Shown one piece after another: positions 12,503 to 31,095 of a DNA stretch of 37,488 bases. The DNA comes from Planctomycetota bacterium. GTDB taxonomy: Bacteria; Planctomycetota; MHYJ01; JACQXL01. A model generated the notes under the pieces. It searched no databases. It worked only from the letters and a program-made list of their open reading frames with translations, and was not told the origin of the DNA. Numbering within the stretch: the stretch's first letter is position 1; the number at the start of each line of letters is the position of its first letter. The position numbers and the translations under genes are program-made. The stretch spans positions 1 through 37,488 of the forward strand of contig JAZDFP010000016.1 in NCBI GenBank assembly GCA_043807745.1, read 5' to 3'.

Positions 12503-12505
12503 TAT

Positions 12506-17446: not shown

Positions 17447-17477
17447 GCCGTGTTATAAAATGCTATACTTTGTTATA

Positions 17478-19547
17478 TTATTCTACTACTGGAATTAACG
17501 TGCAACGACAGTTGCACAAATTTTTCGCTGAACCTTTCGGGTCACCGGGATATGCCATTATTTCCCCGCCCACGGAGAAGTCATCTTCAATATTTACCAC
17601 CTGCCCGTTTACTGCGGCGTGTTCCGGCCTGGTCCGCTCATCAATCGCGGTTAACCATTCCTTTTTCTCAGCCCCCATGGTCTTATATCCTATCAGACTT
17701 GCGTTATTGGATGCAGATATTACTTCCGTCCTGGCAATCGTCCGCGCCCGGTAAGGTTCGGCTCTGGTCATTCCGTCAAATACATCCTGCACCCTTGCCT
17801 TCATTTCCTCGATACTCTCGCCGTCATTGTATCCCTCGCCGAGTGTATCCCCGAGTTCCCTTAGCGTAGTCTTATTTATCTCATCTGCGAATTTGAATAT
17901 CTTGGTATTAAGATAATCGACTACTCTTGGGTCGGAAATGTCAAAATCAATAGACCCACCCAGCCTCTTGATTGCGACATTGCCGAACTCCTTCATGGTT
18001 TCACTCAATACTCCGGACATCTGTCTCTGTAATTCCTTATTGGCAAGTGTAATATTAAACATCAGGTTATCTACCTTGGCGTCTTTTCTAATCTTGTCCT
18101 TACCGACCCTTGTTGGTCTGTAATTCTTATCAATCGCATCCATTACCTCAGCCATCTGTTTCTTGGCAAATTTTCTTACGACTACTATCATCTCGTCCTC
18201 ATATGGTTTAGTCCGGTCTACGTAGTCGCGCCATATCCGCTCTTTCTTCTCTTTCTTGGTCAACCTTGACTTGGTGACGGCCGGTTCAGGCTTAACTTCG
18301 TCTGCCGGGTAAAGATTAAAAGGACGATTCCATGTATATCCCCACGGGACCGCCGGCAATCCCCGGCGCGCCCTGACCTCGTTTATCGTTTCTATGCCGT
18401 TGGTCACAAGGGCAACGTCCATCGTCGTTCTCTTTTCCTCATTCTCCGCCATCGCTTTGATGAATTTATAATCAGGTTCAAAATAAAGATTTTCATCTAT
18501 CGGATAGCATAATTGAACCGTCAAGGTTGCCGCCATCTTTTCGGAAAGCGCCATTATAAGTTCATTGACGAATGTCTTTTTCTGTTCCTCCATATTGGAG
18601 TAATTGGTATATTCCAATATTCCTAAAATTCCCGGGGGGGTGCCAATTACTCCGAGTATTTCACTGCATCCCTGCTTCCTGCCCTCAATGAATTCGCTGT
18701 CTTTTTGGCTCTGTGTCGTCGGGGTATATTCTAATCCGTTATCCAAAAATAATTGCTTATGGAAATTGTCGGGTCCGGAATATTCAGTCTCTATCTGCCG
18801 TTTTATCCTTTCGAATGAATCGTCACTCAAGGATTTTTCGGTTGTGAATACTCCCGATACCTTCCCGCCTTTTTTGAAGAAGTTCTTGTTATATGCGATT
18901 GCGTAGTAATCCGTTATCAGGGTATTAACTAAAGGCGATAATGGAGATAACCCTTCGGAATCGGATAATGGATTCCAGAACTTGAAGTGTATCATTTCGA
19001 ACGGCTGGTATTCTATCGGCTTCTTCCCGTATTCGTATCTGATTACAGGCGTCGTTTTTCCAGGCACTACTACCGTCTTTCCAGATTGCAAAATAAATAA
19101 TTCTTTTGGTATATCAGAAGGTGCGGGTTTCCTTTTGTTGTATTCTTTTGCCGTGAAACAGTTGCCGGCGAGTGATAAATTTATTGAGATTCCTTCTTTC
19201 AAATCATAACCAGAATAAAACGGATTCGGTTTTTCAAGTAAATTAATAAGCAGATGGTCTTTTACCTCAATTCCCTTATCGCCCTTCCACTGCATGAGTT
19301 TAAAAGGGCACTTGGCGATGTTCCTGGCGATTGCCGCTATTGATGAATGAACCCATGGATGCAGGGAATAATTCTCCAAGTATTTCTGCCAGATTGAATT
19401 TGATTGTGATTTGCCGAATTGTTTGTTGTCATAATCATTTTCCAGAGCCCGGTTCTCTTTTGATATGGTTATGTCCCCGCCGGCACTGATAGATCTGAAC
19501 CGAGGATTATCTGGGATGGATTCAGATTTTGATATTTTCCTCTTCAT
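17478..19547 (-). CDS. Portal protein fused to a Mu F / SPP1 gp7-like minor head protein domain
   Basis: ~689 aa. The N-terminal two thirds are portal-like (position and size). The C-terminus RTIARTEVISASNNASLIGYK...WLTAIDERTRPEHAAVNGQVV...YPGDPKGSAKNLCNCRCTLIPV is a clear Phage_Mu_F motif. The ORF-track start at 19559 is a TTG. I prefer the first ATG at 19547 (MKRKISKSE). Confidence 0.85.
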   Translation of the reverse strand: MKRKISKSESIPDNPRFRSISAGGDITISKENRALENDYDNKQFGKSQSNSIWQKYLENYSLHPWVHSSIAAIARNIAKCPFKLMQWKGDKGIEVKDHLLINLLEKPNPFYSGYDLKEGISINLSLAGNCFTAKEYNKRKPAPSDIPKELFILQSGKTVVVPGKTTPVIRYEYGKKPIEYQPFEMIHFKFWNPLSDSEGLSPLSPLVNTLITDYYAIAYNKNFFKKGGKVSGVFTTEKSLSDDSFERIKRQIETEYSGPDNFHKQLFLDNGLEYTPTTQSQKDSEFIEGRKQGCSEILGVIGTPPGILGILEYTNYSNMEEQKKTFVNELIMALSEKMAATLTVQLCYPIDENLYFEPDYKFIKAMAENEEKRTTMDVALVTNGIETINEVRARRGLPAVPWGYTWNRPFNLYPADEVKPEPAVTKSRLTKKEKKERIWRDYVDRTKPYEDEMIVVVRKFAKKQMAEVMDAIDKNYRPTRVGKDKIRKDAKVDNLMFNITLANKELQRQMSGVLSETMKEFGNVAIKRLGGSIDFDISDPRVVDYLNTKIFKFADEINKTTLRELGDTLGEGYNDGESIEEMKARVQDVFDGMTRAEPYRARTIARTEVISASNNASLIGYKTMGAEKKEWLTAIDERTRPEHAAVNGQVVNIEDDFSVGGEIMAYPGDPKGSAKNLCNCRCTLIPVVE

Positions 19548-19560
19548 AGCATAAAGCAAA

Positions 19561-19584
19561 GAGACTCCGTGTTATCGGAGTCTC
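19561..19584 (-). promoter_or_regulatory. Perfect 9-bp hairpin 13 nt upstream of the portal ATG
   Basis: GAGACTCCG-ataaca-CGGAGTCTC, followed on the minus strand by TTTGCTTTATGCT ATG. It could act as an attenuator or as a translational control element. Confidence 0.35.
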
Positions 19585-19670: not shown

Positions 19671-19709
19671 AAATAAAAAAGCCGTTCAAACGTTATGTCT
19701 GAACGGCTT
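19671..19709 (-). terminator. Rho-independent terminator (repeat copy B) at the end of the accessory island
   Basis: Same 10-bp stem and TTTTTTATTT tail as copy A. Confidence 0.7.
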
Positions 19710-19725
19710 AAGATTATTTCTATTA
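19671..19725. repeat. 55-bp exact direct repeat, copy B (partner at 17392..17446)
   Basis: Identical to copy A. Identity breaks at 19726 (a, versus g at 17447). Confidence 0.95.
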
Positions 19726-19764
19726 ACCGAAAAATCTAATTATAACCTCTGCCTTTATTTCATA
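19672..19764 (-). ncRNA. Candidate ~90-nt promoter-to-terminator transcript (small RNA or leader)
   Basis: It is bounded by the sigma70-like promoter at 19770..19798 and terminator copy B. It contains only a 2-codon mini-ORF (AAGGAAATT ATG AAA TAA). Confidence 0.3.
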
Positions 19765-19801: not shown

Positions 19802-20308
19802 TTATTCTCGTTTTCGAGAAGATTTTTTATTAGGGAATTTAGTTGCTTTGGCAGATACTCCGACTGCCGTTTCTTCTTTTCCTATCATAGCACCTCGACA
19901 TCCGATTTGCATCGGTGGAATTTTATATTCATGTGCCGTAACAATTGTAAATACATGACGATACGAATTTTCGTCTATTAAATTATATTTATATGAAAAT
20001 TCATACCCTTCGTATCCATATGAACTTTTACTATATTGTATATCAAAGCAAGGAATATTCTTATTGCCACCTAATATGGAACATAATCGTGATACAGCCC
20101 TAACGAATTCCCCTTTAGTCTTTATTTTGCTAACCCTCTTACCATTCCATGTTAATTTTCCTTTAATCTGAACCCAATATTTATATTCACCATCTTGAAG
20201 TATTCCTATTGATTCGTCAAATTGATAATCAACTAAATGATGAATGGTTATATGCTTAGTCAAAAACGGATAAGTCCCATTCAGGATATTTTTAGTAAAA
20301 TCTTTCAT
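19802..20308 (-). CDS. Hypothetical protein (168 aa), last gene of the island
   Basis: ORF with a strong SD (GGAAAGGAGAAAAT ATG) and an ATGA overlap with the upstream small ORF. It has a basic C-terminal tail. No family recognised. Confidence 0.6.
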   Translation of the reverse strand: MKDFTKNILNGTYPFLTKHITIHHLVDYQFDESIGILQDGEYKYWVQIKGKLTWNGKRVSKIKTKGEFVRAVSRLCSILGGNKNIPCFDIQYSKSSYGYEGYEFSYKYNLIDENSYRHVFTIVTAHEYKIPPMQIGCRGAMIGKEETAVGVSAKATKFPNKKSSRKRE

Positions 20309-20478
20309 ATTTTCTCCTTTCCAAATTTATCTACCCAAAATCCCACTATATCATTTGGATAAGCCTCATTAAACTCTATGTCATTTGCCGCACTATTCAA
20401 CGCTTCGTCTAAAGTTTCATGAGATTCAGTTTCCCCAGCATGGAATCTTGTTTTGTAATAAATATATTCATTCGCCAT
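20305..20478 (-). CDS. Small acidic hypothetical protein (57 aa), absent from the ORF track
   Basis: I translated MANEYIYYKTRFHAGETESHETLDEALNSAANDIEFNEAYPNDIVGFWVDKFGKEKI. AGGAGG lies 5 nt upstream of the ATG, and the stop overlaps the next start (ATGA). Confidence 0.55.
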   Translation of the reverse strand: MANEYIYYKTRFHAGETESHETLDEALNSAANDIEFNEAYPNDIVGFWVDKFGKEKI

Positions 20479-20487
20479 ACCGTCCTC

Positions 20488-20679
20488 CTACTTAATATTT
20501 TCTGGCAACACCCTGACTTTTTCTGGTAATGGTTCGTTAATATCCTCCTTTTTATATAAATAGCAAGCGCCAGCATATCCTCTTCCGGTTGCTTGCTGAC
20601 ACTTTAATATCAGGCATCTATCCCTATGGTAACAGTCTCTGCATATTCCCATGTATATGTTTTTATTAATCTGTTTCAT
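20488..20679 (-). CDS. Small Cys-rich hypothetical protein (63 aa)
   Basis: ORF with CRDCYHRDRC...C...C. It has no SD, and a possible promoter lies immediately upstream. Confidence 0.45.
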   Translation of the reverse strand: MKQINKNIYMGICRDCYHRDRCLILKCQQATGRGYAGACYLYKKEDINEPLPEKVRVLPENIK

Positions 20680-20686
20680 AATTATT

Positions 20687-20714
20687 AATATATCCTATAT
20701 ATCTTCAATGTCAA
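20687..20714 (-). promoter_or_regulatory. Candidate internal promoter giving a near-leaderless start for 20488..20679
   Basis: Minus strand TTGACA (20714..20709), a 16-nt spacer, then TATATT (20692..20687). The ATG at 20679 lies ~7 nt downstream. Confidence 0.25.
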
Positions 20715-20955
20715 ATGTTTTAACTCTAAAATATTCCGGCTCGTTCTTTTGCTTATCGGTGCATTTTAGACATATTCTGTTTCCAATCCATGCACTCATG
20801 AATTTCTTTCCATAATCACCCAAGCACGGTCTCATCTTAGGTTTCTCTATTTTACGGTCATTCTCGTTATCTGGCTCGTTATATTTAAGTCTTAGTTGTC
20901 CCTTAGAAAATATTATTGAATTAATTATGCAGCCACGACGGACTTCGCTTACCAT
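20695..20955 (-). CDS. Hypothetical protein (86 aa)
   Basis: ORF in the operon. It has scattered Cys residues (C..C...CLKC). No family recognised. Confidence 0.5.
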   Translation of the reverse strand: MVSEVRRGCIINSIIFSKGQLRLKYNEPDNENDRKIEKPKMRPCLGDYGKKFMSAWIGNRICLKCTDKQKNEPEYFRVKTFDIEDI

Positions 20956-20959
20956 ATTC

Positions 20960-21166
20960 TTAGTCGTTCTTTTTATCTATCTTTACCGTCCGCTCCAAAT
21001 CTACCTGATATATCTCTCCGCCTCTGAAATTTAATATTACCTTGCCGTAAAATCCTTTTTCCACGTATTCGATGATTTGTTTCATTGCCTTTTTGGCAAG
21101 TTCCATATTATTCTCCAACCTTGAATTTGCGGTTTCTGCCTTCATTCCTTTTTCGCTTCCTTCCAT
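20960..21166 (-). CDS. Small protein, possibly YezD/DUF2292-like
   Basis: 68 aa with a strong SD (AAGAAGGAGGGTGT ATG). The C-terminal GKVILNFRGGEIYQVDLERTVKI resembles the DUF2292 pattern (G.v...v.dG.i..ie..e). Confidence 0.45.
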   Translation of the reverse strand: MEGSEKGMKAETANSRLENNMELAKKAMKQIIEYVEKGFYGKVILNFRGGEIYQVDLERTVKIDKKND

Positions 21167-21178
21167 ACACCCTCCTTC

Positions 21179-22300
21179 TTATTTATTAATTAAAGAATCA
21201 AATAATCTTATATGTTCCTTTACCATCCGCTCCTGAGAAAACAATATCTTTCCTGAGTTGGCGATTTTCCTATTATCCAGAATATTCACTTCTTTTAATA
21301 ATGCGATTATGGTCCCGGCAAGAACCTCGGCATTGCCTCTTGGGAATCCATAAATGGCAGCCTCATTAATTATCTCTTCCATGTTCTCGCCCTCACTCAC
21401 GATACACGGCAGTCCGCAGCAGGTCGCCTCCATTATCGTCGTATCCATTCCTGTATAATATAGTGTCGGATTGACGAATATCTTAGCCTGATTGTAAACG
21501 CCTGGCATTTCATCATTCGGCAATGCGCCTTTGTATTCTATGTTAATAAAATCATGCTTTTCGGTATTGCTTCCAAATGCGACGCATCTGATATTCCTAT
21601 TCCATTCTTTTACCATTCCCATTGCATGGTTAAGCACTCCGATTCCTTTTAACTTGGTAAGGTTGCCGGTAAAAAGAACATCATATATCTTTTCCTGTTC
21701 AGGCATGTAGTCAAACCTGTCAATATCGATTCCATTCCTTATCATCTCCACCCTCTTCGACTGTAACACATATTTAATATTCCTTACATTCACTTCGGTT
21801 AATCCGATGAGGCAGTCGTATTTCTGCGCATTCATCCTGTCTTCCCGCGCTTGCATTATGCGCCCGTGCACCCATATTGCAAACTTGTTGACATCAAAAC
21901 GGACATCATCCGGATTCGTTATCGCCGGTATAAGCGACGTGAATATTTCCTCATAAGAGAAGCCGTGCAGTCTCTGGATTGACGGTATTGCCGGATAACT
22001 ATCTACTACATAACTTCCGGCTCCTGATTCTGAATAAATCAAATCCTGTTTTAACTCCCCCACTCTTTTGGTCGCCAACTTAAACCATTCCGGCGTATAC
22101 CGCAATGTCGGACAGGGTAGGTATTCTATCCTAACATTATTAACCACCTCTTCCTTGATTGACTTGTTAGGATTGCTCATGGTCAGCACGGTTATCTCAT
22201 GCCCTGCCTTGGCAAGCCCTTCGCATAGGCTACCGCATACATTGGGCATCCCTCCTGGGCTGGTCGTCGGATATCCGCGTGTTAAGACTGTGATTTTCAT
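21179..22300 (-). CDS. GT-B fold glycosyltransferase, GT4 family (Glycos_transf_1)
   Basis: The N-terminus is MKITVLTRGYPTTSPGGMPNVCGSLCEGLAKAGHEITVLT. The C-terminus is FVNPTLYYTGMDTTIMEATCCGLPCIVSEGENMEEII, which fits the E..g....EA...G.P.i.s motif. Confidence 0.8.
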   Translation of the reverse strand: MKITVLTRGYPTTSPGGMPNVCGSLCEGLAKAGHEITVLTMSNPNKSIKEEVVNNVRIEYLPCPTLRYTPEWFKLATKRVGELKQDLIYSESGAGSYVVDSYPAIPSIQRLHGFSYEEIFTSLIPAITNPDDVRFDVNKFAIWVHGRIMQAREDRMNAQKYDCLIGLTEVNVRNIKYVLQSKRVEMIRNGIDIDRFDYMPEQEKIYDVLFTGNLTKLKGIGVLNHAMGMVKEWNRNIRCVAFGSNTEKHDFINIEYKGALPNDEMPGVYNQAKIFVNPTLYYTGMDTTIMEATCCGLPCIVSEGENMEEIINEAAIYGFPRGNAEVLAGTIIALLKEVNILDNRKIANSGKILFSQERMVKEHIRLFDSLINK

Positions 22301-22301
22301 A

Positions 22302-22571
22302 TTAATCTGCGCTTTCTTTTATCCTTTTTCCGCCACTTGGGCTTAGAGTTGCTGGCACTTTCCCTTCTTTTATATATCTTAATAGAGGTCGTTGTGGTTT
22401 TGGATTTCCTTCTGGTCTTGGAGTTTGTGGTCGTCTGTTCACTCCGCCTTTTTTAACTGGCCCCTCCCTTAAACCATGAAAATCGTTTTGCTCAAGTTTA
22501 TTATCTAAATTATATCCAAAAGTATTTGGATTATTCCTCATTAGTAACCAATCTAAAAATCTTCTTATCAT
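22302..22571 (-). CDS. Basic, Pro-rich hypothetical protein (89 aa)
   Basis: ORF coupled by an ATGA overlap to the upstream gene. It contains KKGGVNRRPQTPRPEGNPKPQRP. No family recognised. Confidence 0.5.
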   Translation of the reverse strand: MIRRFLDWLLMRNNPNTFGYNLDNKLEQNDFHGLREGPVKKGGVNRRPQTPRPEGNPKPQRPLLRYIKEGKVPATLSPSGGKRIKESAD

Positions 22572-23128
22572 TTGGCCTCACTTTCTATCTTGATTGATTT
22601 TATAATAAATGGTCTTCTAACACTCGATAGGAAAAACCCTGCCGCTTTTAAAGCTGATATTATTCGAGTCTTCGGGTAATAGGTTTCGGTCGAATACATA
22701 ACCCCCTTAGCAATATCTGCGCCACTCCCAACTGCATTAAATGGCAACCTCACCTCTTCAACTTGGTAATCCGATTCAATTACAAACAGCCTACCCTTAA
22801 ACCCAATAAGAAAGGAACCGCCACATTCCGTCTCTTTATCCTTACTGGCAAAGCCACCATCTTTCAAACACGTCCTAACAGCATCAACGAAATCAGTAAC
22901 CATATATTCAAATACTGTTTTGCCATTACTGTATTCTGGAATTTTAAGTTTATATCTTAACAGTTGACCCATCCTATAGGATGAAGTAAAACCAATAATA
23001 AACTTATCCTTAATAAAAACCTTTTCATCTGCCCGAATCGCAACCGCATCATCCGCTTTTCCGATGCTATCCGCACCAATATAAATCTTATTCGATTTTT
23101 TATCTATAAGCCCTATTACACAAGTCAT
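22568..23128 (-). CDS. Proteasome beta / HslV-like Ntn hydrolase (peptidase T1-like)
   Basis: With the start at 23128 (SD AAAGAGG 7-8 nt upstream) the protein begins M-TCVIGLIDKKSNKIYIGADSIG, so Thr would be exposed after Met removal. Later motifs are FIIGFTSSYRMGQ and FNAVGSGADIAKGVMY (compare HslV aiGSGg.yA). The ORF-track start at 23149 overlaps the wecE-like gene and has no SD. Confidence 0.6.
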   Translation of the reverse strand: MTCVIGLIDKKSNKIYIGADSIGKADDAVAIRADEKVFIKDKFIIGFTSSYRMGQLLRYKLKIPEYSNGKTVFEYMVTDFVDAVRTCLKDGGFASKDKETECGGSFLIGFKGRLFVIESDYQVEEVRLPFNAVGSGADIAKGVMYSTETYYPKTRIISALKAAGFFLSSVRRPFIIKSIKIESEAK

Positions 23129-23132
23129 ACTA

Positions 23133-24269
23133 TTACCTCTTTCTTGCATAGAACTCTGCTATGCTATCTGTAATAAAATCTATATCCTCTTTCTTCATGC
23201 CGTAGTAAAGAGGAAGTCTTACTAATCTACTGCTCAAGTCTGTCGTGTATTTATCCTGTCCGTTGAATACCCCGAACTGCTTCCCCGCCGATGAACTATG
23301 CAGCGGCACGTAGTGGAATATCGCCAGGATATCTCTTGCCCTAAGATATTTTATCAGTTCGTTTCTCTCTGCCTCACTCCTGCATATCCCGTAAAATATA
23401 TGCGCATTGTGCCTGGCGTAATCCGGTATCTTATTTACTTTGAATCCATCGATGCTGGATAGTTTCTCATAGTAATAATTCCATGATTTCTTCCGGTCAT
23501 TGATTATCGTCTGTGCTTCCTCCAGTTGGGCCAGCAGGAATGCCGAACTTATTTCGTTAAGCAGGTATGACGACCCTTTGTCCATCCACGTGTATTTATC
23601 TACGTATCCTTTCAGGAAATTAGACCGGTTCGTTCCTTTTTCCCGGATGATCTCCGCTCGCTCGTAAAACTCCGGGTTATTAATCAGTATCGCTCCGCCT
23701 TCACCGCAGTGAATATTCTTAGTCTCATGGAAACTTAGACAGCCGATATCGCCGATAGTGCCCAAATACCTATCATTATACCGCGCAATGATGCATTGAG
23801 CCGCGTCTTCTATGACATAGATGTCTCTTTCCCTTGCTATCTGCATTATCTTGTCCATATCGCACGCCACGCCTGCGTAATGCACCACTATAATCGCTCT
23901 GGCCCTGTCATTTATTGCATCCCGGATTACATTCGGGTCTATATTCATCGTATCCGAGGCGATATCAACAAACCGTATCCGGGCGCCGTGTAATACGAAT
24001 GCATTGGCGGTCGACGGGAATGTAAAAGAAGGCATTATCACTTCGTCGCCTTCTTTTATGTTTATAAGTAATGCTGCCATCTCAAGCGCGTGCGTGCATG
24101 ACGGAGTGACCAGCACTTTATTGCATTCCATATTTTTCTCTATCCACGTCTGGCACTTCTTGCCGAACTCTCCGTCACCAGAGAACTTTTTCTTGAGTAT
24201 TACCTGAGTAATATATTCAAGTTCTTTTACTTTAAGCGTTATTGCCGGGACGTTGTATGGATATTTCAT
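23133..24269 (-). CDS. wecE: DegT/DnrJ/EryC1-family PLP aminotransferase, WecE-like (dTDP-4-amino-4,6-dideoxyhexose transaminase)
   Basis: It appears near-collinear with E. coli WecE as I recall that sequence. Shared stretches are VLVTPSCTHALEMAALLINIKEGDEVIMPSFTFPSTANAFVLHGARIRFVDI..DTMNID, VHYAGVACDMD, FHETKN, GEGGA.LIN, IIREKGTNRS.F, VDKYTW.D.GSSYL, FHY.PLH and RLPL. Confidence 0.8.
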   Translation of the reverse strand: MKYPYNVPAITLKVKELEYITQVILKKKFSGDGEFGKKCQTWIEKNMECNKVLVTPSCTHALEMAALLINIKEGDEVIMPSFTFPSTANAFVLHGARIRFVDIASDTMNIDPNVIRDAINDRARAIIVVHYAGVACDMDKIMQIARERDIYVIEDAAQCIIARYNDRYLGTIGDIGCLSFHETKNIHCGEGGAILINNPEFYERAEIIREKGTNRSNFLKGYVDKYTWMDKGSSYLLNEISSAFLLAQLEEAQTIINDRKKSWNYYYEKLSSIDGFKVNKIPDYARHNAHIFYGICRSEAERNELIKYLRARDILAIFHYVPLHSSSAGKQFGVFNGQDKYTTDLSSRLVRLPLYYGMKKEDIDFITDSIAEFYARKR

Positions 24270-24616
24270 TTTACCTTTTCTTTCTCATCCGGTATTTCAT
24301 AAAATTCCTCGCTTTGCCCCCTTGTAATCCTTTTTGCTTTCTCTTCTGCGGTTATACAATCATCACATACCCATGAATCCTTAACCACAGTTAATCGCTT
24401 CATTTGTTTTTTGCTAAAATAATATTTACGGCATCTGCTGCATCCTTCGCATATAGAAAAATCAACTGGATTTTCTATCTTACATTGCGGGCACTTAAAA
24501 ATCTTAATCTTATATACCCAATTTATTTCATTGTTTTTTACCAGAATCCATTTCATACAATGGTCACACCATATTAATGATTCACCGTCTTTTGGTTTGA
24601 ATACAAATAATGTCAT
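24266..24616 (-). CDS. Cys-rich zinc-ribbon-like hypothetical protein (116 aa)
   Basis: It has several CxxC pairs (CDHC, CPQC, CEGCSRC, CDDC). ATGA overlaps couple it on both sides to the MTase and wecE-like genes. Confidence 0.55.
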   Translation of the reverse strand: MTLFVFKPKDGESLIWCDHCMKWILVKNNEINWVYKIKIFKCPQCKIENPVDFSICEGCSRCRKYYFSKKQMKRLTVVKDSWVCDDCITAEEKAKRITRGQSEEFYEIPDEKEKVK

Positions 24617-25179
24617 ATCTTCCTCCCTATAAACAAACTCCCCACCCTTGGTAACCAGACGTATTTACTACCCGGCATCATTTCCTGCACTGCCTTAACC
24701 ACTCCCGGGGTTCCACCATCGTAATCGTGGCACATCACAATTCCGTTTTTGATTAAGAATGGCAGCCATAAACCCAGGTCTTGCTTGACGCTTTCATACG
24801 TATGCTCGCCGTCTACAAATAACAGGCTGATTCGTGCCGTCCACCCTTTTGCGAATTCCTCGCTCGTGCTCTTTATTGGCTGCACGATATCGGCAACTTT
24901 AAACTTGGATATATTCTTATTGAATTCCTCAAAGGTATCGCTGACATTAAATTTATTATGTGTTGACGTATCCCGGTGCGGGTCGACTGCAAAGATTAGG
25001 TTTTCGTTATATTTTAGTTTGGTTTTTAAACCTAATGCCAGCGCTATGGTGGACTTCCCCATCCACGAGCCTATCTCTACTATGCATCCGGCTTCCGGTA
25101 TTTCCGATGCATACTTAAATAAGGCATCGCCTTCATTCTCATTTATCCAGCCTGGTATTTCTGTCCAATGTGGTTTCAT
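24613..25179 (-). CDS. Class I SAM-dependent methyltransferase (Methyltransf_24 / O-methyltransferase-like)
   Basis: Motifs GCIVEIGSWMGKSTIALALGL and LLFVDGEHTYESVKQDLGLWLPFLIKNGIVMCHDY. An SD (TAAGGAGCGAT ATG) precedes it. Confidence 0.7.
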   Translation of the reverse strand: MKPHWTEIPGWINENEGDALFKYASEIPEAGCIVEIGSWMGKSTIALALGLKTKLKYNENLIFAVDPHRDTSTHNKFNVSDTFEEFNKNISKFKVADIVQPIKSTSEEFAKGWTARISLLFVDGEHTYESVKQDLGLWLPFLIKNGIVMCHDYDGGTPGVVKAVQEMMPGSKYVWLPRVGSLFIGRKI

Positions 25180-25187
25180 ATCGCTCC

Positions 25188-25289
25188 TTAATATGGATAA
25201 TGTCCGTTTGTAAAATATGGCTCATTATTTTTGGTTTTCACTGGCTTCTTGGTGCCCTTACCTTTTTTTGACTTCTTGTTCTTTTTCAC
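25188..25289 (-). CDS. Possible Lys-rich mini-protein (33 aa, GTG start)
   Basis: I translated VKKNKKSKKGKGTKKPVKTKNNEPYFTNGHYPY. GGAGG lies 9 nt upstream of the GTG, and the ORF fills an otherwise empty 109-bp gap. This call is very tentative. Confidence 0.2.
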   Translation of the reverse strand: MKKNKKSKKGKGTKKPVKTKNNEPYFTNGHYPY

Positions 25290-26014
25290 TAATATAAACC
25301 TCCGTTTATATGTATTGCCTGGCCGGTGATGTAGGAACTTTCATCGCTCAACAGAAACCTAATCATCCCGCCCAACTCCTCTATTCGACCGAACCTGCGC
25401 ATCGGTATCGATTCTTTTATCTCGTTCCGGATATCGAGCGGTATCTGGTTAATCATCCCGTATTCGAAGTATCCGAGCGCCAGGGCATTGACCGTGATAT
25501 TCTTATTCACCAATTCAGCAGCGAGCGCCTTGGTTAACCCTATGATACCCGCCTTGGCTGCACAGTAATGGGAGGCGCCGATTATTCCCTTGAATGCGGC
25601 GACCGATGATATATTAATTATCCTGCCTCCATTGCTTGCCCTCATACCCGGGATAAATTCATTGATGCACATAAAAGCGGAAAACAGATTATCGTTAATG
25701 ATTGTCTGGAATTCTCCGGTAGGCATTTTCCAGCTCATTGCATTGGATGATGCGCCGGCCATGTTGACGATTCCCCACACATTACCAGCTTTAGCTTTTA
25801 ATATTTGCACGTCATCTTCATTGGTCAGTTCGGCACGGATACACACGGCATCGCTTTCTATCCCATGGCCCATCAATACACTGTCCAATTTGTCTTTGTT
25901 GCCCCTGTATTGGCAGACGATATCGTATTGCTTGCTGCCGAGCAGGTAGTTAACGAGTTCAACCCCGATTCCTCCGTTAGCACCGGTTATTAATATTCTT
26001 TTATTATTTTCCAT
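25289..26014 (-). CDS. Classical short-chain dehydrogenase/reductase (FabG-like)
   Basis: The cofactor motif is ILITGANGGIG. The catalytic motif is S..(13)..YCAAKAG (YxxxK). The length, 241 aa, is too short for an RmlB-type extended SDR. Confidence 0.8.
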   Translation of the reverse strand: MENNKRILITGANGGIGVELVNYLLGSKQYDIVCQYRGNKDKLDSVLMGHGIESDAVCIRAELTNEDDVQILKAKAGNVWGIVNMAGASSNAMSWKMPTGEFQTIINDNLFSAFMCINEFIPGMRASNGGRIINISSVAAFKGIIGASHYCAAKAGIIGLTKALAAELVNKNITVNALALGYFEYGMINQIPLDIRNEIKESIPMRRFGRIEELGGMIRFLLSDESSYITGQAIHINGGLY

Positions 26015-26023
26015 TATGAAAAC

Positions 26024-26764
26024 TTAATACCTTTCAAAGTGTTTATGAAACGTATAAAAAGCATTGTCTATGCTTGGTTCAAATCCTAATCGCACCCAGA
26101 CCTTCTGCACGGCTATGCTCGTTATCTGCGTTGACACTATCATCCGCTCCTTTTTCTGCCCGGCAATCCAGTTAAGCGCTTCGATGATAAGCGAGCGATA
26201 GATTCCCTTGCCCTGGTATTCCGGTAGGATGCTTGAGAGCACGCCTTCGCCGTCCTTGTCATTGTTCAGGCGCACGGCAACAAAGCCAACTATCTTACCT
26301 TTGTCTTCGGCCACGAATACTTTATCTGCTGCCAGTTTATCGTGGCAGACCCGATATCCCCAGTCTTCATATGTTCGATTGCATTCATCTATATTTAACA
26401 TGGTATCGTTATGATAGTGACCGTTGTAGTTCTTAAATCCAATTGCGGATATTTTCTCAACTAACCTGGTTTCGGTTGCAGGGTCCAGTTCCCGGATGAT
26501 TATATTATCTTCCCTTTTATCTTTCTGAATACTCTTTAGGTTATGCACATAGCATACCTGCGTATCCATTAGCCGAAATCCTGCACTCTCCATTTCTTGA
26601 ACGGTTGCTATATCCGCAGCATTACACCGGGCAATCAGAAACCTAACGCTATTGGCTTTGCAATAAGTAAGCACATCAAGAATATCATCATGCTTGATAC
26701 CGCTCGCCCTTGCCGATTGTATTCCGAATCGTTCCGTGTCTAATTTTGATAATGATATTATCAT
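26024..26764 (-). CDS. wecD: Two-domain GNAT N-acetyltransferase, WecD-like (dTDP-4-amino-4,6-dideoxyhexose N-acetyltransferase)
   Basis: The GNAT core is IVGFVAVRL...EGVLSSILPEYQGKGIYRSLIIEALNWIAGQKKERMIVSTQITSIAVQKVWVRLGF. The N-terminal extra domain (LDTERFGIQSA...FLIARCNAADIATVQEMESAGFRLMDTQV) parallels E. coli WecD as I recall it. The gene is close to the wecE-like gene. Confidence 0.6.
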   Translation of the reverse strand: MIISLSKLDTERFGIQSARASGIKHDDILDVLTYCKANSVRFLIARCNAADIATVQEMESAGFRLMDTQVCYVHNLKSIQKDKREDNIIIRELDPATETRLVEKISAIGFKNYNGHYHNDTMLNIDECNRTYEDWGYRVCHDKLAADKVFVAEDKGKIVGFVAVRLNNDKDGEGVLSSILPEYQGKGIYRSLIIEALNWIAGQKKERMIVSTQITSIAVQKVWVRLGFEPSIDNAFYTFHKHFERY

Positions 26765-26925
26765 CTTATCTCCTTAACAGATTTAATCTTTCCTGAACAC
26801 AGTTCGACGTCTTTTATCATCATCGACCTAATTGCCCATCGTGCCGCGCCCCTACTTTTAGCCTTGATATGGATTAACCTGTAATCCTTTACTTCTATCT
26901 TTACTTCGTAGTATTTTGATTTCAT
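26761..26925 (-). CDS. Small hypothetical protein (54 aa), absent from the ORF track
   Basis: I translated MKSKYYEVKIEVKDYRLIHIKAKSRGAARWAIRSMMIKDVELCSGKIKSVKEIR. It starts right after the upstream TAA, and its TGA overlaps the ATG of the wecD-like gene. Confidence 0.4.
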   Translation of the reverse strand: MKSKYYEVKIEVKDYRLIHIKAKSRGAARWAIRSMMIKDVELCSGKIKSVKEIR

Positions 26926-27780
26926 TTAGAAATACTCCCCTTTATATTTCAATATTTCTTTCACGTCTTTGCCGTAGTATGGATGCTTCTTCATTATTGC
27001 CGGAAACGCCCCCTTATACGGCACGGTAAACATCGGCGAAGCGTCTAAATTCATATTGACATTAGTCGTCTCTTTTGCATTCATCCACTTATTAATCACG
27101 TCCACTGGGTTCTCCCTCGGTCTCTTGGAATAAAATTGGTTGTTCCATTCCGCTTTCTGTTCCAGGTGTTTTAAATTATGCACCCACTTAAAGTGATGTA
27201 TTTTAATATCGTGCGCCAGGTTAGCTCCTCCCATCCGCACTTCGCATTCCGGTCGTGACGGATAGACAAAAGCCGCATTCTTGGTTATTGCTTCTAACTT
27301 CATATCCCGATTAAACATGTAATTGCGCCCTTCAGCTCCCGGGCCTACCCAGCCGAAGTCGCCGTGGAATACCAAGTGGTCAGGTGAGTAATTGAACTTC
27401 CTTTCTTTGGTCAACTTTATCAATTTATTTAACTCCTTGTCATCCCATACCTCATCTGGCATACTGATGATAAAAGCGTCATCATCGGTGTATCCGAGTT
27501 CACACATTTTATCAAATCCTGCACGCCATTGCTCATTAGGTGAATACCAGCCCTCACTGAATACAGTATGTATTTTGCCATGATGTTTCTTTCGCATTAA
27601 CTCTATATATTCGAGCGTCCTGTCCTGGTCTTTTATTTCTGCTTTATTTATGCGCCACTGCCACATATATTTGGTTGGACAGGTTATAACAATATGGTCG
27701 AGTTTAAGTAGGCTCTGGATACACTGGGCCATGTATTCCTCGTCGTGCGGCATACAAATCATTAAAGCAGATATTTTCAT
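26926..27780 (-). CDS. Putative GT-A fold glycosyltransferase (divergent third paralogue)
   Basis: I prefer the start at 27780 (MKISALMICMPHDEEYMAQCIQSLLKLDHIVI; SD AAAGGATAAC ATG). It has acidic motifs DDDAFIISMPDE. It shows weak similarity to the two head-locus GT-A genes. Confidence 0.4.
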   Translation of the reverse strand: MKISALMICMPHDEEYMAQCIQSLLKLDHIVITCPTKYMWQWRINKAEIKDQDRTLEYIELMRKKHHGKIHTVFSEGWYSPNEQWRAGFDKMCELGYTDDDAFIISMPDEVWDDKELNKLIKLTKERKFNYSPDHLVFHGDFGWVGPGAEGRNYMFNRDMKLEAITKNAAFVYPSRPECEVRMGGANLAHDIKIHHFKWVHNLKHLEQKAEWNNQFYSKRPRENPVDVINKWMNAKETTNVNMNLDASPMFTVPYKGAFPAIMKKHPYYGKDVKEILKYKGEYF

Positions 27781-27790
27781 GTTATCCTTT

Positions 27791-28189
27791 CTACCTGATT
27801 TCATCTATTTCATCAGGCTTATCCTTGCTTTCAACTATCCTTAAATCTATACCTAAATCCCTGAGGTAATGAACATCTATTATTATTTTTCCGTAAGAGA
27901 ATAAAACGGCTCCAAGGCTTTTCTTTCCATCTGCATAATACGCTCTTAGGTTTTTGTTAAACTCTATCAGTCCCTGTGATATTATCTGAGACTGCTCTTC
28001 GACTTGCTGATATGCTTCCCTCAGTTCTTCAATGGTCAGCGGCTTTTCCGGCTTCGCCTCAGTCCAGGTCGTTGCTTCTTTATCAATCTTTTCTGCTGAT
28101 GCCTTAATAACGTCGTGTTCTAATTGCCTATCTAATTCGTTTTTTCCGAAAATTAACTTTGCATTTTCCCATGCTTCTTTATTTATCAT
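27791..28189 (-). CDS. Hypothetical protein (132 aa)
   Basis: I prefer the start at 28189 (MINKEAWENAK), which forms an ATGA overlap with the upstream stop. The longer ORF-track start at 28294 would overlap the upstream gene by 108 nt. Confidence 0.5.
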   Translation of the reverse strand: MINKEAWENAKLIFGKNELDRQLEHDVIKASAEKIDKEATTWTEAKPEKPLTIEELREAYQQVEEQSQIISQGLIEFNKNLRAYYADGKKSLGAVLFSYGKIIIDVHYLRDLGIDLRIVESKDKPDEIDEIR

Positions 28190-28932
28190 TTGCAATATTC
28201 CTCCAGTTCTTTTGTCCCCACCGTCACATGTTTCGCCAGCATATCGCACAGCCGGGACAGGTTTGATACGTATGCGCTCTCGATGGTTTCCCACGTGAAA
28301 TGCAGGGTTATCGTTATCAGTGTGTCTTCCTCTATCATATTCAGTGCATATTCGTCCCTGTATATTTGTTCATTGAATACCAGTGCCGGTATTTCTCGTG
28401 ATCTGGTATAATACAAATGGGACGATTGGAGACACATCAACCCATTATCATCAAAGAAGCATTTACCCCCTTCCTCTATCTTCCCGCCGAAGAATGTCTT
28501 GAACCCGATTTGCTTGAGATGGTATCTCAGATTCGGTGTATCCTCATCAAACGGCGATATGTAACTGGTTATCTTGCCGAAGCGCACCTCCATTATCCGC
28601 TTATGTTCTGCTAATAATTTATGCAGTCTACATGATTCGCCTTCCATCTCCTCAATCACCCTAATTTCCTTAACATTGCATTCACACAGATTAACCAGCC
28701 ACCGCCTATGGTCTACCCCATGCATTGCTACGTCTATTTTGGCTTCCTGAATTATCTGGATATCCCGACTGTCCAGCATGGTCGGCACCACTCCGAGTAT
28801 GTATTTCACTCCGTATTTTTTGAATACCTCATTGAACATCGCCAATCTGAGATGCTTGGTCGCATCCGGCAGGCGCGGGTCAGTGTTTAGTGCCCGCGGG
28901 TAGTCATCTACGCGGACGATAAATTTCAGCAT
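28186..28932 (-). CDS. Polysaccharide deacetylase-like protein (NodB-fold / DUF2334-like)
   Basis: The stretch MLKFIVRVDDYPR...VFKKYGVKYILGVVP...DVAMHGVDH fits the pattern lRvDD......f..y..k..lgviP.....HG..H. Confidence 0.45.
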   Translation of the reverse strand: MLKFIVRVDDYPRALNTDPRLPDATKHLRLAMFNEVFKKYGVKYILGVVPTMLDSRDIQIIQEAKIDVAMHGVDHRRWLVNLCECNVKEIRVIEEMEGESCRLHKLLAEHKRIMEVRFGKITSYISPFDEDTPNLRYHLKQIGFKTFFGGKIEEGGKCFFDDNGLMCLQSSHLYYTRSREIPALVFNEQIYRDEYALNMIEEDTLITITLHFTWETIESAYVSNLSRLCDMLAKHVTVGTKELEEYCK

Positions 28933-29537
28933 ACCTTCTCCTTTTTAAAATCATCCAAAATAGCATAAATCACTGTTAAGGGAATGAATTTATCTGAATA
29001 TCTATCGAATATTTTCCCGTCCATTGCACTATTTACCAATACCTGCCTTAGCCTGTCCAAATCAACACTTTCTTTTGGAAGGACTAAAAAGTCCCCATTG
29101 GAATCGGTTTGTAATGATGCTGGTATTTTATTTATCTCTGATTTAGTAATTTTATCTATCCGATTAACACCAAAATATTTTGAGCAAATTATTCCATGAT
29201 GATTAAAATATGCCTTGCCGTCTGCAAAACAAATCTGCCAATAACTATTGTCTCGCATTAATAATTCATCTCCCACTTTATATGTTTTTTCTATTAGCTT
29301 AGGCGGTTCTGGTGGCAATCCACAATTAGGGCAAAAATGAATCGGTTCAGAAGAATGAATAAATCTTGCCCAGCATTGTTTTTCATGCCAATGTAACTCA
29401 ATGGAATCCTTTCTCATATTCATCCAATCACACTCACAATATTGCTGTTGTTGCCAGTTATCACAAGCATCGAGTTTATCTGTTTTCTTAAATCCGCATT
29501 CGTTCCTACAATTTTCACAGTTCTTCTCTGTTTTCAT
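28926..29537 (-). CDS. Hypothetical protein with a Cys-rich N-terminal half (203 aa)
   Basis: It contains CENCRNEC...C...CEC...C...CPNC. It is the first gene after TerL. Confidence 0.55.
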   Translation of the reverse strand: MKTEKNCENCRNECGFKKTDKLDACDNWQQQQYCECDWMNMRKDSIELHWHEKQCWARFIHSSEPIHFCPNCGLPPEPPKLIEKTYKVGDELLMRDNSYWQICFADGKAYFNHHGIICSKYFGVNRIDKITKSEINKIPASLQTDSNGDFLVLPKESVDLDRLRQVLVNSAMDGKIFDRYSDKFIPLTVIYAILDDFKKEKVC

Positions 29538-29538
29538 A

Positions 29539-31095
29539 TCAATTCTCCCTCTCTTTTGTGGTTACCACCCTAATTTTCGGCACGTTCCTGAGTGCCTGTT
29601 CCCGGACCTGCCAAGCAATTGCCCAGGCTATTACCAAGTCATCAAAACTCCCTCCCTTCGCCCCATATCCACCGTCTGATAACTGCTGGAATGTCTGACA
29701 TTGACCCAGAAATTCCATGTCGTTGACCTTCATTAGATTTTCCACGAATGCATTATCAAGTCCGTTAATCATCAGCGGTCTCGTCTTTGCATTCGTATGC
29801 CATCCCAACTTACCCTCGCCACCGTCTGCATCATAATCTACGTGCTTATAAATATTGGGATAACGAATGGTATTATACAGAGTATTAAGTGTTGAGTGTC
29901 CGTGATTATTCGCTTCCGGAGCGAGCATACCGGTGTTGTATTCATAACCAAGTTTCGCCATCTTCTCGCCGAATACCTCCGGGCGCCATCTGCCCACCAG
30001 ACATGCCACCTGCTCGCAGGTATTAACATCAAGCACGCCTGCACAAGAGAAATCCGATTTCTCTAATCCCTCCCCCACATCACCCCCTATCGCATAGACG
30101 TGCCCCTTCTCCGGGTTAACCCATATCAACAGCGCGCCGTCTTCCCTGATTTCTATTGGCGGTTTGCATTTGGCAGCCAGTGCTCGGACAATTTCGATAT
30201 TGAATCTATGCAAGCCGGATGATATAAAAGCCTCCATTGGATTTTCGGGAAACTCCTGCGGGAATAGTTTTTTATATTCAAATTTCGTATCCCTGCGCCA
30301 TTTAATCTGTTCAGGTATGATATCTATTTCGTATATCTCTTTGGCATATCTAATTAAGTCTTTTTCATTCTCTTCATATTTAAGTTCCTCTCCTTCCCCT
30401 AATGCCAACATGTTATTTTGGTCTATATACCAGGGCAGGAATATCGGATTCCAACTATTGCCGCCCTTTGTTGCCTCGTTCCAGGTATCAAAGAACCATC
30501 CGCCGACCCCGTTGCCGGTTGTCTCGCATATCACATCCCCATATCGGCAAGCCCCAAATATACCTGCGATAAAGTTCTCTATTGCCTCTTTAGTGCCTGG
30601 AAAGTATGCCGCTTCACTCAGATGCACCCGTTGCACCGTCTTACTACGGCCGGCCGCCTTCGCCCCGGCTGTGCCGATGGAGAATTTACTATTAATTCTA
30701 GGGAAGTCCAGTTCGTTCTTATTTTCATAATCCCGGCGCGGTCTTATAGACGGGTCCAATTTATCATAAAATAATTGCGCTATCCTGAATATTTCCTGCG
30801 TATCGGGTTTGGTATGAGCTAAGGTTATACATGACTGATTAGCCATCGTTGCTACCAGCTGGAAACTCTCCGCTTGTTCAAGCGTAGTTATCCCTACTTT
30901 CCTTGACTTCAATACTAGGTATCGCTTCTTCTTGCCCAACTTGCGATAGTAGTTCTTCAATTTGAGATAATATATTTGCGTTGAGTTAAGATAAAACGGG
31001 CGTATGTATCCCATTTCGTCCTTGATATACAGGAACGTCTGCATATACTTGATTTTGTTATTCAAATACGAATATGCTTGTGCCGTATCTACCAT
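29539..31095 (-). CDS. Terminase large subunit
   Basis: 518 aa. The Walker A-like motif is YLVLKSRKVGITT (compare lKaRQ.G.St), and the Walker B-like motif is RVHLSEAA. A C-terminal nuclease-like region follows. It sits downstream of the TerS-like gene. Confidence 0.85.
   Translation of the reverse strand: MVDTAQAYSYLNNKIKYMQTFLYIKDEMGYIRPFYLNSTQIYYLKLKNYYRKLGKKKRYLVLKSRKVGITTLEQAESFQLVATMANQSCITLAHTKPDTQEIFRIAQLFYDKLDPSIRPRRDYENKNELDFPRINSKFSIGTAGAKAAGRSKTVQRVHLSEAAYFPGTKEAIENFIAGIFGACRYGDVICETTGNGVGGWFFDTWNEATKGGNSWNPIFLPWYIDQNNMLALGEGEELKYEENEKDLIRYAKEIYEIDIIPEQIKWRRDTKFEYKKLFPQEFPENPMEAFISSGLHRFNIEIVRALAAKCKPPIEIREDGALLIWVNPEKGHVYAIGGDVGEGLEKSDFSCAGVLDVNTCEQVACLVGRWRPEVFGEKMAKLGYEYNTGMLAPEANNHGHSTLNTLYNTIRYPNIYKHVDYDADGGEGKLGWHTNAKTRPLMINGLDNAFVENLMKVNDMEFLGQCQTFQQLSDGGYGAKGGSFDDLVIAWAIAWQVREQALRNVPKIRVVTTKEREN

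Follow-up and report, generated by a model that had tools for sequence, protein, structure and literature searches.

Contig JAZDFP010000016.1 (37,488 bp; hereafter “the window”, meaning the whole stretch of DNA analyzed) carries an island of exactly 18 co-oriented open reading frames (ORFs) between the genes for the terminase large subunit (TerL) and the portal protein (positions 19802–29537, 9736 nt), and a second cassette at positions 11221–14675. We propose, with a probability of roughly one half, that this region constitutes a phage-borne glycan-building system that would be co-transcribed with the packaging and head genes, expressed late, and used to glycosylate virion proteins. The enzyme set comprises a WecE-type aminotransferase, a WecD-like GNAT together with a FabG-like short-chain dehydrogenase/reductase (SDR), one or two methyltransferases, a CE4/DUF2334-like protein, and four or five glycosyltransferases (GT4, two GT2-like enzymes, GT9, and possibly a 292-aa orphan protein), which lie within the operon running from TerL to the head–tail adaptor genes. 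The co-occurrence of both cassettes in related genomes and the position of the GT2-like gene in the head module lend comparative support that favors virion glycosylation, as far as gene content can speak to it.

An earlier reading of this DNA from its letters (the sequence-only reading) had described TerL and the portal gene as split by 18 co-oriented genes, many of them coupled by ATGA overlaps, and had noted the second cassette. This description held: profile matches verified both flanking genes, six ATGA junctions were counted together with two further overlaps (7 and 14 nt), and family matches confirmed the second cassette, which consists of GT2, GT9, a Methyltransf_11 enzyme, a GT2 paralog, and a Pro-rich protein. 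Gaps longer than 15 nt occur in the island only between the SDR and Methyltransf_24 genes (109 nt) and before the portal gene (242 nt), and the genes overlap with TerL and share its orientation. The boundary genes, the capsid gene, and the members of the two cassettes discussed here are listed below in gene order (L001, L006, L010, L011, and L015 are loci of relatives, described in the next section).

29539–31095, minus strand: TerL, upstream island boundary (PHROG 2 “terminase large subunit”, E = 1e-21)
28186–28932, minus strand: DUF2334/CE4 (NodB-fold)-like putative deacetylase, core (DUF2334, E = 1.6e-3)
26926–27804, minus strand: 292-aa orphan, possibly of GT-A fold, core (hhalign match to the phage GT2-like family)
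26024–26764, minus strand: WecD-like two-domain GNAT N-acyltransferase, core function (Acetyltransf_1, E = 5e-11)
25289–26014, minus strand: classical SDR of the FabG/acetoacetyl-CoA reductase type (adh_short, E = 1e-38)
24613–25179, minus strand: Methyltransf_24 S-adenosylmethionine (SAM)-dependent methyltransferase (Pfam, E = 4e-24)
23133–24269, minus strand: WecE-type dTDP-4-keto-6-deoxyhexose 4-aminotransferase, core (DegT, E = 1.5e-86)
21179–22300, minus strand: GT4 (GT-B fold) glycosyltransferase, core (Glyco_trans_1_4, E = 1e-16; Glycos_transf_1, E = 2e-14; Glyco_transf_4, E = 2e-12)
17478–19559, minus strand: portal–MuF fusion, downstream island boundary (Pfam Phage_portal, E = 7e-65; Phage_Mu_F, E = 1.5e-17)
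14814–16127, minus strand: HK97-fold major capsid protein (Phage_capsid, E = 8e-8; PHROG 10)
14082–14675, minus strand: GT2-like glycosyltransferase of GT-A type, first gene after that of the capsid (Glycos_transf_2, PF00535, 28.1 bits against a cutoff of 23.3)
13141–14085, minus strand: GT9, heptosyltransferase-like (Glyco_transf_9, E = 3e-17)
12506–13144, minus strand: Methyltransf_11-type SAM methyltransferase (Pfam, E = 4.5e-9; conserved in L006 and L011)
11690–12502, minus strand: 270-aa GT2-like paralog (66% identical in L006, 52% in L011)
11221–11703, minus strand: 160-aa protein, its N-terminal domain small and conserved and its tail rich in Pro/Lys/Ala (conserved in L006; no family matches)

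Pfam and NCBIfam assignments were judged against the curated score cutoffs (gathering or equivalog). Seven of the eight motif-based family calls of the sequence-only reading were sustained, namely, WecE, the WecD-like GNAT, the SDR, the methyltransferase, GT4, the HslV-like Ntn hydrolase, and the DUF2334/CE4-like protein. Taken together, the enzymes make up a coherent pathway of nucleotide-sugar tailoring and transfer.

Judged by its profile scores, the protein encoded at 23133–24269 is a true WecE ortholog, full-length and above the equivalog cutoff (NF008687, 559.9 bits against 375; TIGR02379, 546.5 bits against 434.85). It matched the WecE structures 6blg and 4piw in the PDB with E-values of about 1e-124, shared approximately 52% identity with Salmonella WecE, and carries the motif SFHETK...GEGG (SFHETKNIHCGEGG), SFHxxK...GEGG being, in the DegT family, the motif of the lysine that binds pyridoxal phosphate. 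The two-domain architecture of the GNAT protein, with the GNAT domain at residues 133–230, aligned end to end with WecD; residues 6–237 matched positions 10–227 of 232 in NCBIfam PRK10975 (dTDP-4-amino-4,6-dideoxy-D-galactose acyltransferase; E = 1.8e-17), and the scores fell far below the cutoffs of the WecD equivalog models (NF008212, 64 bits against 219; TIGR02382, 40 bits against 195). The top NCBIfam models for the SDR were 3-oxoacyl-acyl carrier protein reductase and acetoacetyl-CoA reductase, all scoring below their cutoffs, and an assignment as a sugar (4,6-)dehydratase or epimerase was therefore rejected. The Methyltransf_24 protein matched PDB entry 6g7d, a “methyltransferase domain protein” (E = 1e-10) that may be a mycobacterial mannoside O-methyltransferase.

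Taken by itself, the protein of the window gives only a weak DUF2334 call (18.5 bits, under the Pfam cutoff of 26). The call is strengthened by the ortholog in L015, which passes the cutoff (32.1 bits, with an additional Polysacc_deac_1 match at E = 5e-4), and by the invariant DD and HxxxH motifs: across the four orthologs, the motifs DD, HGxDH, and LHxTWE and the residues D9, D10, H71, H75, and H211 do not vary. A PDB profile search with the DUF2334-like alignment returned nothing meaningful, and the AlphaFold2 (AF2) model was poor (single-sequence; mean predicted local distance difference test [pLDDT] score, 36.5).

For the 292-aa protein, the “GT-A-like” call received weak support. An hhalign comparison with the phage GT2-like family gave a probability of 59% (E = 9e-5) and aligned an invariant SMPDE on the DxDE motif, but there was no match in Pfam, PHROG, NCBIfam, or the PDB, and a PDB profile search with the alignment yielded nothing meaningful. 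The protein falls into one cluster among 1.84 billion representatives, and its start is probably M9, as in its three homologs. Its AF2 model was poor (two-sequence, pLDDT 44) with a beta-alpha-beta N-terminal half, and Foldseek returned only generic Rossmann-like matches (TM-score ≤0.28), which we disregarded.

In the second cassette, GT9 matched the heptosyltransferase I and II models (E about 1e-14, below the cutoffs) and the PDB structures 3tov and WaaC. The GT2-like family has 34 hits, all metagenomic, and the motifs D33-G34 and D91-x-D93-E94 are invariant or nearly so among 29 homologs. By BLASTP, the 270-aa paralog aligned with the 14082–14675 protein (E = 3e-8) across 100 N-terminal residues that include the DxD motif. 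All five contexts that were examined place the GT2-like gene in the head module, with the capsid gene on one side and the head–tail adaptor genes on the other; it adjoins the capsid gene in three and stands one to four genes further on in two. It is directly 3′ of the capsid gene in the window, L011, and L014 and one gene past it in L006 (behind an endonuclease-like insert) and L012; in L013, where an unrelated packaging module combines Terminase_6N with a portal of SPP1 type, it is preceded by two small genes and another two glycosyltransferase genes. The structural module of L014, another uncultured phage (GCA_033813915.1, JAPZCA010000368.1; 8613–14054), contains a 722-aa fusion of GT9 and GT2 as well as a GT4, a Cpn10 homolog, and three methyltransferases. 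None of the enzymes of the island or the cassette has a typical hydrophobic 19-residue window indicative of a membrane helix, GT9 being borderline, and by this measure they appear to be soluble.

Conserved core and variable slot

Relatives were reached via TerL homologs, of which 414 were found, the closest being 78% identical. Four contigs in all carry the module, the window and three from other samples, and its recurrence at the same position in these three is more than chance would give. The closest relative (Logan run SRR23882335; loci L001 and L006) shares 78% identity in TerL, 69% in the portal protein, and 60% in the capsid protein. It has the same module after TerL, with other interspersed small genes, a TnpB gene before the portal gene, and the second cassette after the capsid gene; identities are 87% for WecE, 72% for GNAT, 68% for the SDR, 67% for the DUF2334-like protein, 65% for GT4, 52% for the 292-aa protein, and 38% for the 54-aa protein. 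WecE (23133–24269 in the window, 15717–16853 in L001) is the best-conserved protein between the two.

On L010, a 3.9-kb JGI contig, the order is TerL, the DUF2334-like gene, an 87-aa gene, the ortholog of the 292-aa gene, the 54-aa gene, GNAT, and the SDR. Here, the 292-aa ortholog is 90% identical to that of the window, whereas the C-terminal half of TerL is only 44% identical, suggesting that the module moves between phage backbones while its position is kept. The DUF2334-like protein is 66–75% identical in L001 and L010 and 32% in L015, and GNAT is 72–73% identical in L001 and L010. The third relative (loci L015 and L011; TerL, 54%) has a compact 7.2-kb version of the module and the full second cassette. 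Its order is DUF2334, GT4 (42%), a 283-aa ortholog of the orphan (49%), a hexapeptide-repeat acyltransferase, Methyltransf_24 (43%), DegT (59%), two small genes, and the portal gene. GNAT and the SDR are both missing there and are replaced by the hexapeptide-repeat acyltransferase, and the Methyltransf_24 ortholog present in L015 has no counterpart in L001.

As judged from these alignments, the conserved core is a CE4-like protein, the 292-aa orphan, the aminotransferase, an N-acyltransferase step, and GT4, joined in some lineages by a methyltransferase. The island had been taken for a single 18-gene unit, and this was not borne out; the core is interleaved with lineage-specific small genes. 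Specific to the window are the Ntn hydrolase and six ORFs (203, 116, 89, 63, 57, and 168 aa) without a homolog in any relative. The identities of WecE (87%) and of the 292-aa protein in L010 (90%) point to either a recent horizontal exchange of the module between backbones or a very strong constraint.

Both cassettes occur together in three of the three genomes in which both slots could be read. Other TerL relatives (53–54% identity) have neither cassette, no glycosyltransferases, and a different head module, and in their TerL–portal gap lie 2.1–3.1 kb of small genes, or a DNA methyltransferase gene. Across the loci seen, this gap ranges from 0 to 10.7 kb, and its varying size and content mark the TerL–portal slot as a variable hotspot in the clade.

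The variability of the slot bears on a further explanation, that the gap is a dumping ground in which genes without a common function accumulate, the sugar enzymes being fragments of a captured bacterial cluster. The range of gap sizes in relatives, with their DNA methyltransferases, TnpB, and homing-endonuclease-like genes, would suit this explanation, as would the six of 18 ORFs without a homolog and the Microbacterium phages that carry 17–40 ORFs of no known function in the same slot (PMC7302621). We nevertheless regard it as improbable. The conservation of the core contradicts unrelated insertions: it is kept across phages whose TerL proteins are only 44–54% identical, and WecE is more conserved than TerL, the portal protein, or the capsid protein. 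Furthermore, the repertoire is functionally coherent, the N-acyltransferase step survives non-orthologous displacement, and a second cassette of matching function co-occurs.

The intervening genes of the relatives include homing-endonuclease-like proteins (HNH, DUF559, and EndoVII-like). The selfish elements in the glycan cassettes of relatives are as follows.

L006, 8534–9652: TnpB (OrfB_IS605)
L006, 14591–15292: DUF559 (Vsr-like) endonuclease
L011, 10609–11298: HNH endonuclease
L001, 12325–12915: weak EndoVII-like protein

The DUF559 and HNH endonuclease genes adjoin the GT2-like gene after the capsid gene, standing before it in L006 and after it in L011. Such selfish elements may drive cassette exchange.

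Among 50,697 deposited phage records, a megablast search with 13.8 kb of the window found no match, the 292-aa protein had no match, and true WecE orthologs were absent, bacterial-contaminant entries aside. Scans of IMG/VR with TerL, the portal protein, WecE, and the 292-aa protein returned no relatives or only distant ones; with the 292-aa alignment, a scan of JGI metagenomes recovered only L010 again and a scan of GTDB genomes found nothing. Looking up the exact TerL and portal sequences of the window gave no record.

Candidate acceptors of the proposed glycan

In the proposed pathway, RmlA and RmlB of the host would supply dTDP-4-keto-6-deoxy-glucose, which WecE would aminate at C4 to give dTDP-4-amino-4,6-dideoxyhexose, and GNAT would N-acylate this product. 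In L015, a hexapeptide-repeat acyltransferase takes the place of GNAT and the SDR, which is in keeping with N-acylation as the step after the aminotransferase. The SDR is a possible source of a 3-hydroxyacyl donor, since the SDR and GNAT are present together or absent together among the relatives, and the adjacent SDR, being FabG-like, points to a non-acetyl acyl group. Late in infection, the GT2-like enzymes, GT9, GT4, and possibly the orphan would then act in the cytoplasm to build, directly on virion proteins, a short glycan that is methylated in part, and the methyltransferases and the CE4-like enzyme would trim or cap it. The capsid protein would be the first candidate for the acceptor because a GT2-like enzyme is encoded right after its gene. 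The resulting sugar coat would change properties of the particle surface, for example its adhesion, its stability, or how well it is shielded from recognition. The six ORFs without homologs, the Ntn hydrolase, and the Cys-rich proteins would be unrelated insertions in a recombination-tolerant TerL–portal slot.

The lack of membrane segments in the enzymes, the absence of Gtr/Wzx/Wzy, hydroxymethyl-base, or defense matches, and the location of the GT2-like gene in the head module favor a soluble, late-acting system tied to the head. Two proteins may serve as acceptors. The capsid protein, one candidate, has a Ser/Thr-rich variable segment at about residues 168–198, and the Pro-rich protein encoded at 11221–11703 is a candidate glycan acceptor or decoration protein. 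Relatives of the latter carry Thr/Pro-rich tails, and the L011 version has two domains and a TTPSETGTPKPP tail. A more detailed picture, in which an uncultured siphovirus lineage makes its own activated N-acyl-4-amino-4,6-dideoxyhexose (possibly 3-hydroxyacylated) from an intermediate of host dTDP-sugar metabolism and uses the phage-specific GT2-like “capsid glycosyltransferase”, GT9, GT4, and the orphan to assemble a methylated capsid heteroglycan, is put forward tentatively, and we would sooner doubt it than rely on it.

Several points weigh against virion glycosylation. We infer the acceptor from gene content, and the Ser/Thr-rich capsid loop is a candidate site only; the capsid protein and the protein of the tail tube lack the Ser/Thr-rich C-terminal extensions that bear glycans in mycobacteriophages. 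The classical role of WecE, WecD, and GT9 is in envelope glycans (enterobacterial common antigen [ECA], O-antigen, and lipopolysaccharide [LPS] core), and cytoplasmic glycosyltransferases without membrane segments can act on lipid-linked intermediates. The window contains no RmlA or RmlB, and the precursor supply is for this reason assumed. The co-occurrence of the cassettes comes from three related genomes, and the adjacency to the capsid gene from five contexts out of 34 family members. The 292-aa protein, with its poor structure models, counts only as a possible glycosyltransferase.

The strongest rival is that the module uses host dTDP-sugars to remodel the envelope glycan of the host (O-antigen, LPS core, capsule, or S-layer) during infection or lysogeny, which could block superinfection or stop progeny from re-adsorbing to lysing cells. 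We consider this unlikely, at something like half the weight given to virion glycosylation, but it stays serious because the closest characterized homologs are ECA and LPS enzymes: WecE scores above the equivalog cutoff, and the GNAT is WecD-like and the GT9 LPS heptosyltransferase-like. The ConA-like lectin domain at the tail tip suggests a glycan receptor, and serotype-changing phage glycosyltransferases are well known (reviewed in PMC12619734). Pfam scans, however, found no GtrA/GtrB/GtrC-like protein, Oac, Wzx/Wzy, polyprenyl-phosphate transferase, or O-acetyltransferase membrane protein, and no enzyme has a clear membrane segment. The genes lie inside the packaging/head operon, overlapping with TerL, and do not adjoin early genes or the integrase and attachment site that usually neighbor O-antigen conversion genes. 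The GT2-like family keeps company with the capsid gene even where the packaging modules are unrelated, and late expression would leave little time for an envelope change to matter.

Hypermodification of the phage DNA, in which an amino sugar on modified bases would protect against restriction, is highly improbable: GT-A and GT-B phage glycosyltransferases do glycosylate 5-hydroxymethylcytosine (bioRxiv 10.1101/2023.12.21.572611), relatives carry several DNA methyltransferases, and PHROG 2675, matched by the Methyltransf_24 protein, is labeled “DNA methyltransferase”, but the described glycosyltransferases travel in operons with C5-methyltransferase and 5mYOX/TET genes (10.1101/2023.12.21.572611), no TET, dCMP/dUMP hydroxymethylase, or C5-methyltransferase occurs in the island or the rest of the 37.5-kb window, L002, the relative with a C5-methyltransferase, has none of the glycosyltransferases, and the position is that of a late structural module and not of a replication module. 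A role in anti-phage defense was also rejected, as PADLOC gave no match for 10 island proteins.

Small genes, flanking genes, and transcript boundaries

The remaining island genes, in gene order, are as follows.

28926–29537, minus strand: 203-aa Cys-rich protein (12 Cys), this window only (no family match; good ribosome-binding site)
27791–28189, minus strand: 132-aa protein, no assigned function (start revised; ATGA overlap with the upstream stop)
26761–26925, minus strand: 54-aa conserved small protein (38–46% identity with its counterparts at this position in L001 and L010)
24266–24616, minus strand: 116-aa Cys-rich protein (9 Cys), variable (no family match; ATGA overlap on each side)
22568–23149, minus strand: HslV/proteasome-like Ntn hydrolase, this window only (PHROG 1040, E = 1.5e-18)
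22302–22571, minus strand: 89-aa basic Pro-rich protein, variable (no matches; ATGA overlap)
19802–21166, minus strand: five small ORFs (68, 86, 63, 57, and 168 aa), low-GC tail

The 203-aa protein is not found at this position in L001, L010, or L015, where the DUF2334-like gene follows TerL directly or sooner. The ORF at 27791–28294 (GTG start) most likely begins at the ATG at 28189, giving the 132-aa protein, only the N-terminal part of which is similar to the 87-aa gene of L010. The Ntn hydrolase, for which there was no Pfam or PDB match, probably starts at M8 (23128), preceded by the ribosome-binding site GAAAGAGGA, with Thr2 as the N-terminal nucleophile; it was rejected as a pathway member, being without a counterpart in all relatives. 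The tail has a GC content of 0.34 against about 0.42 in the enzyme core, and its 68-aa and 86-aa ORFs are conserved in L001 (48% and 36%), the other three having no homolog.

The small ORFs of the island had been called often Cys-rich, which is correct for the 203-aa and 116-aa proteins, but the feature is not special to the island. Small Cys-rich proteins without family matches are unusually many across the window (up to 13% Cys), the 34027–34482 protein having 20 Cys in 151 aa, and the suggestion that such ORFs mark the island was accordingly rejected. These and the other flanking features are as follows.

31089–31328, 34027–34482, 34521–34769, 36050–36499, 28926–29537, and 24266–24616, minus strand: Cys-rich small proteins
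Before TerL in gene order, minus strand: small low-GC genes, including a PAPS-reductase-like gene and a radical-SAM/DUF5131 protein
Just upstream of TerL, minus strand: conserved 197-aa protein, probably the terminase small subunit (TerS)
19671–19729, minus strand: 59-nt repeat, copy 1, with terminator hairpin, ending the TerL–island transcription unit
17392–17450, minus strand: 59-nt direct repeat, copy 2, with a terminator-like hairpin (13-bp stem and T-run), 98% identical to copy 1
Portal to capsid interval, minus strand: XkdF-type protease, then a scaffold-like protein
After the second cassette in gene order, minus strand: head–tail adaptors, tail tube (7832–8806), tape measure, and Dit

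The window consists of one contig on which every gene is on the minus strand and the gene order is that of a siphovirus late region. It resembles an incomplete phage genome without a bacterial flank, and the NCBI record is binned into a Planctomycetota metagenome-assembled genome; because there is no bacterial flank, the host assignment is one of binning alone. NCBI proteins of this contig include MFH1230013.1 (portal, identical) and MFH1230009.1 (glycosyltransferase). TerL is distant from cultured phages (≤30%); in tblastn searches, it shared 26–30% identity with annotated terL genes over more than 90% of its length. Extending past the left end of the contig is a tail protein of more than 1330 aa (3–3992, minus strand), probably the receptor-binding, glycan-recognizing tail tip; a ConA-like lectin/glucanase domain was recognized in it (Laminin_G_3, E = 1.6e-12), along with a weak match to BppL_N. 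No integrase was present in the window, and the search for tRNAs and Rfam families found none.

The sequence-only reading had the island closing with a promoter/terminator pair before the portal gene, and both elements were located. A TTGACA-N17-TATAAG promoter-like site (19798–19770) begins 3 nt past the last island stop, and a hairpin resembling a terminator (19709–19679; 13-bp stem plus T-run), approximately 60 nt beyond that site, closes the island before the portal gene, as in L006. The pair could specify a short transcript of approximately 90 nt or an attenuator; the 19798–19672 segment has no Rfam match. The 59-nt direct repeats bracket the portal gene, and that of L006 is likewise flanked by equivalent hairpins (9826–9856 and 12128–12159), so that the portal gene looks like a separately bounded transcription unit. 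A second GC-rich hairpin (19561–19584) followed by TTTGCTTT abuts the portal start codon, an arrangement kept in L006 (9964–9988). The portal gene starts at the TTG at 19559 or at an ATG four codons later and has no Shine-Dalgarno sequence.

Known systems and significance

Whether a comparable split of TerL and portal genes had been described was left undecided by the sequence-only reading. Wide TerL–portal gaps are on record in Microbacterium phages, with 17 intervening ORFs in Quhwah and 40 in Hendrix (PMC7302621). In these phages, as here, the two genes are parted by many co-oriented small ORFs in a canonical structural operon; unlike here, the ORFs are mostly of no known function and form no coherent pathway, whereas the island has a conserved core of glycan enzymes.

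The nearest functional parallel is the glycosylation of capsid and tail-tube proteins by glycosyltransferases and an O-methyltransferase in mycobacteriophages (Che8, Corndog/cluster O, and cluster F), as cited from Freeman et al. (2023, Cell Host Microbe) in PMC11600133, PMC12619734, and PMC11256854. Both systems have tandem soluble phage glycosyltransferases and a methyltransferase, here alongside the structural genes. To our knowledge, mycobacteriophages rely on host nucleotide sugars. The citing papers mention no WecE/WecD-type tailoring (PMC11600133, PMC12619734, and PMC11256854), whereas the window appears to encode a dedicated pathway for an N-acylated amino-dideoxyhexose. Further differences are that two cassettes lie here inside the packaging/head operon, that C-terminal Ser/Thr acceptor tails are not evident, and that the mycobacteriophage hosts are Actinobacteria, whereas this contig is binned with Planctomycetota.

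The WecE ortholog and the nearby two-domain WecD-like acyltransferase recall the dTDP-Fuc4NAc branch of ECA synthesis (RmlA/RmlB, WecE, WecD, and WecF). In contrast to that branch, the window lacks RmlA, RmlB, WecA, WecF, WzxE, and WzyE, its GNAT scores 64 against 219 bits on the WecD model, and the genes stand in a phage head operon with a FabG-like SDR adjacent. Among viruses, chlorovirus PBCV-1 has capsid glycosyltransferases, and Mimivirus has a viosamine/bacillosamine pathway; with their own aminotransferase, N-acetyltransferase, and glycosyltransferases, such viruses decorate the particle without host secretory machinery. The likeness, which is one of description, is that nucleotide-sugar tailoring and transfer are both virus-encoded; the giant viruses are eukaryotic viruses of at least 300 kb, whereas the window derives from a siphovirus of roughly 40–55 kb. 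PBCV-1 is also mentioned in 10.1101/2023.12.21.572611. TibC/Aah, which are related to LPS heptosyltransferases, carry out cytoplasmic glycosylation of proteins at Ser residues (PMC4358343), and a GT9-like enzyme can thus accept a protein acceptor; unlike them, the window GT9 matches LPS heptosyltransferase models, WaaC, and 3tov, with no specific TibC match.

Phage virion glycosylation is therefore already known, and what is new here is the phage's own nucleotide-sugar tailoring, the two-cassette split in the packaging/head operon, and the environmental lineage. We know of no tailed phages other than mycobacteriophages in which virion glycosylation has been demonstrated experimentally. In mycobacteriophages, glycosylation of the virion alters antibody recognition of the particle. 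Were the target of the present system the host envelope, it would represent a conversion module hidden in a late operon. The four-genome clade from sediment- and groundwater-type metagenomes suggests that virion glycosylation may extend to environmental phages and that such a system may include dedicated nucleotide-sugar tailoring, otherwise known from giant eukaryotic viruses. If the phage does tailor its own sugar and attach the glycan to its capsid, it would be the first case among small tailed phages in which tailoring and transfer are both carried out by the phage. Furthermore, given that phages otherwise unrelated to one another have a GT2-like gene beside that of the capsid, capsid glycosylation would then be widespread among environmental phages outside Actinobacteria, and the GT2-like family could serve as its genomic marker.

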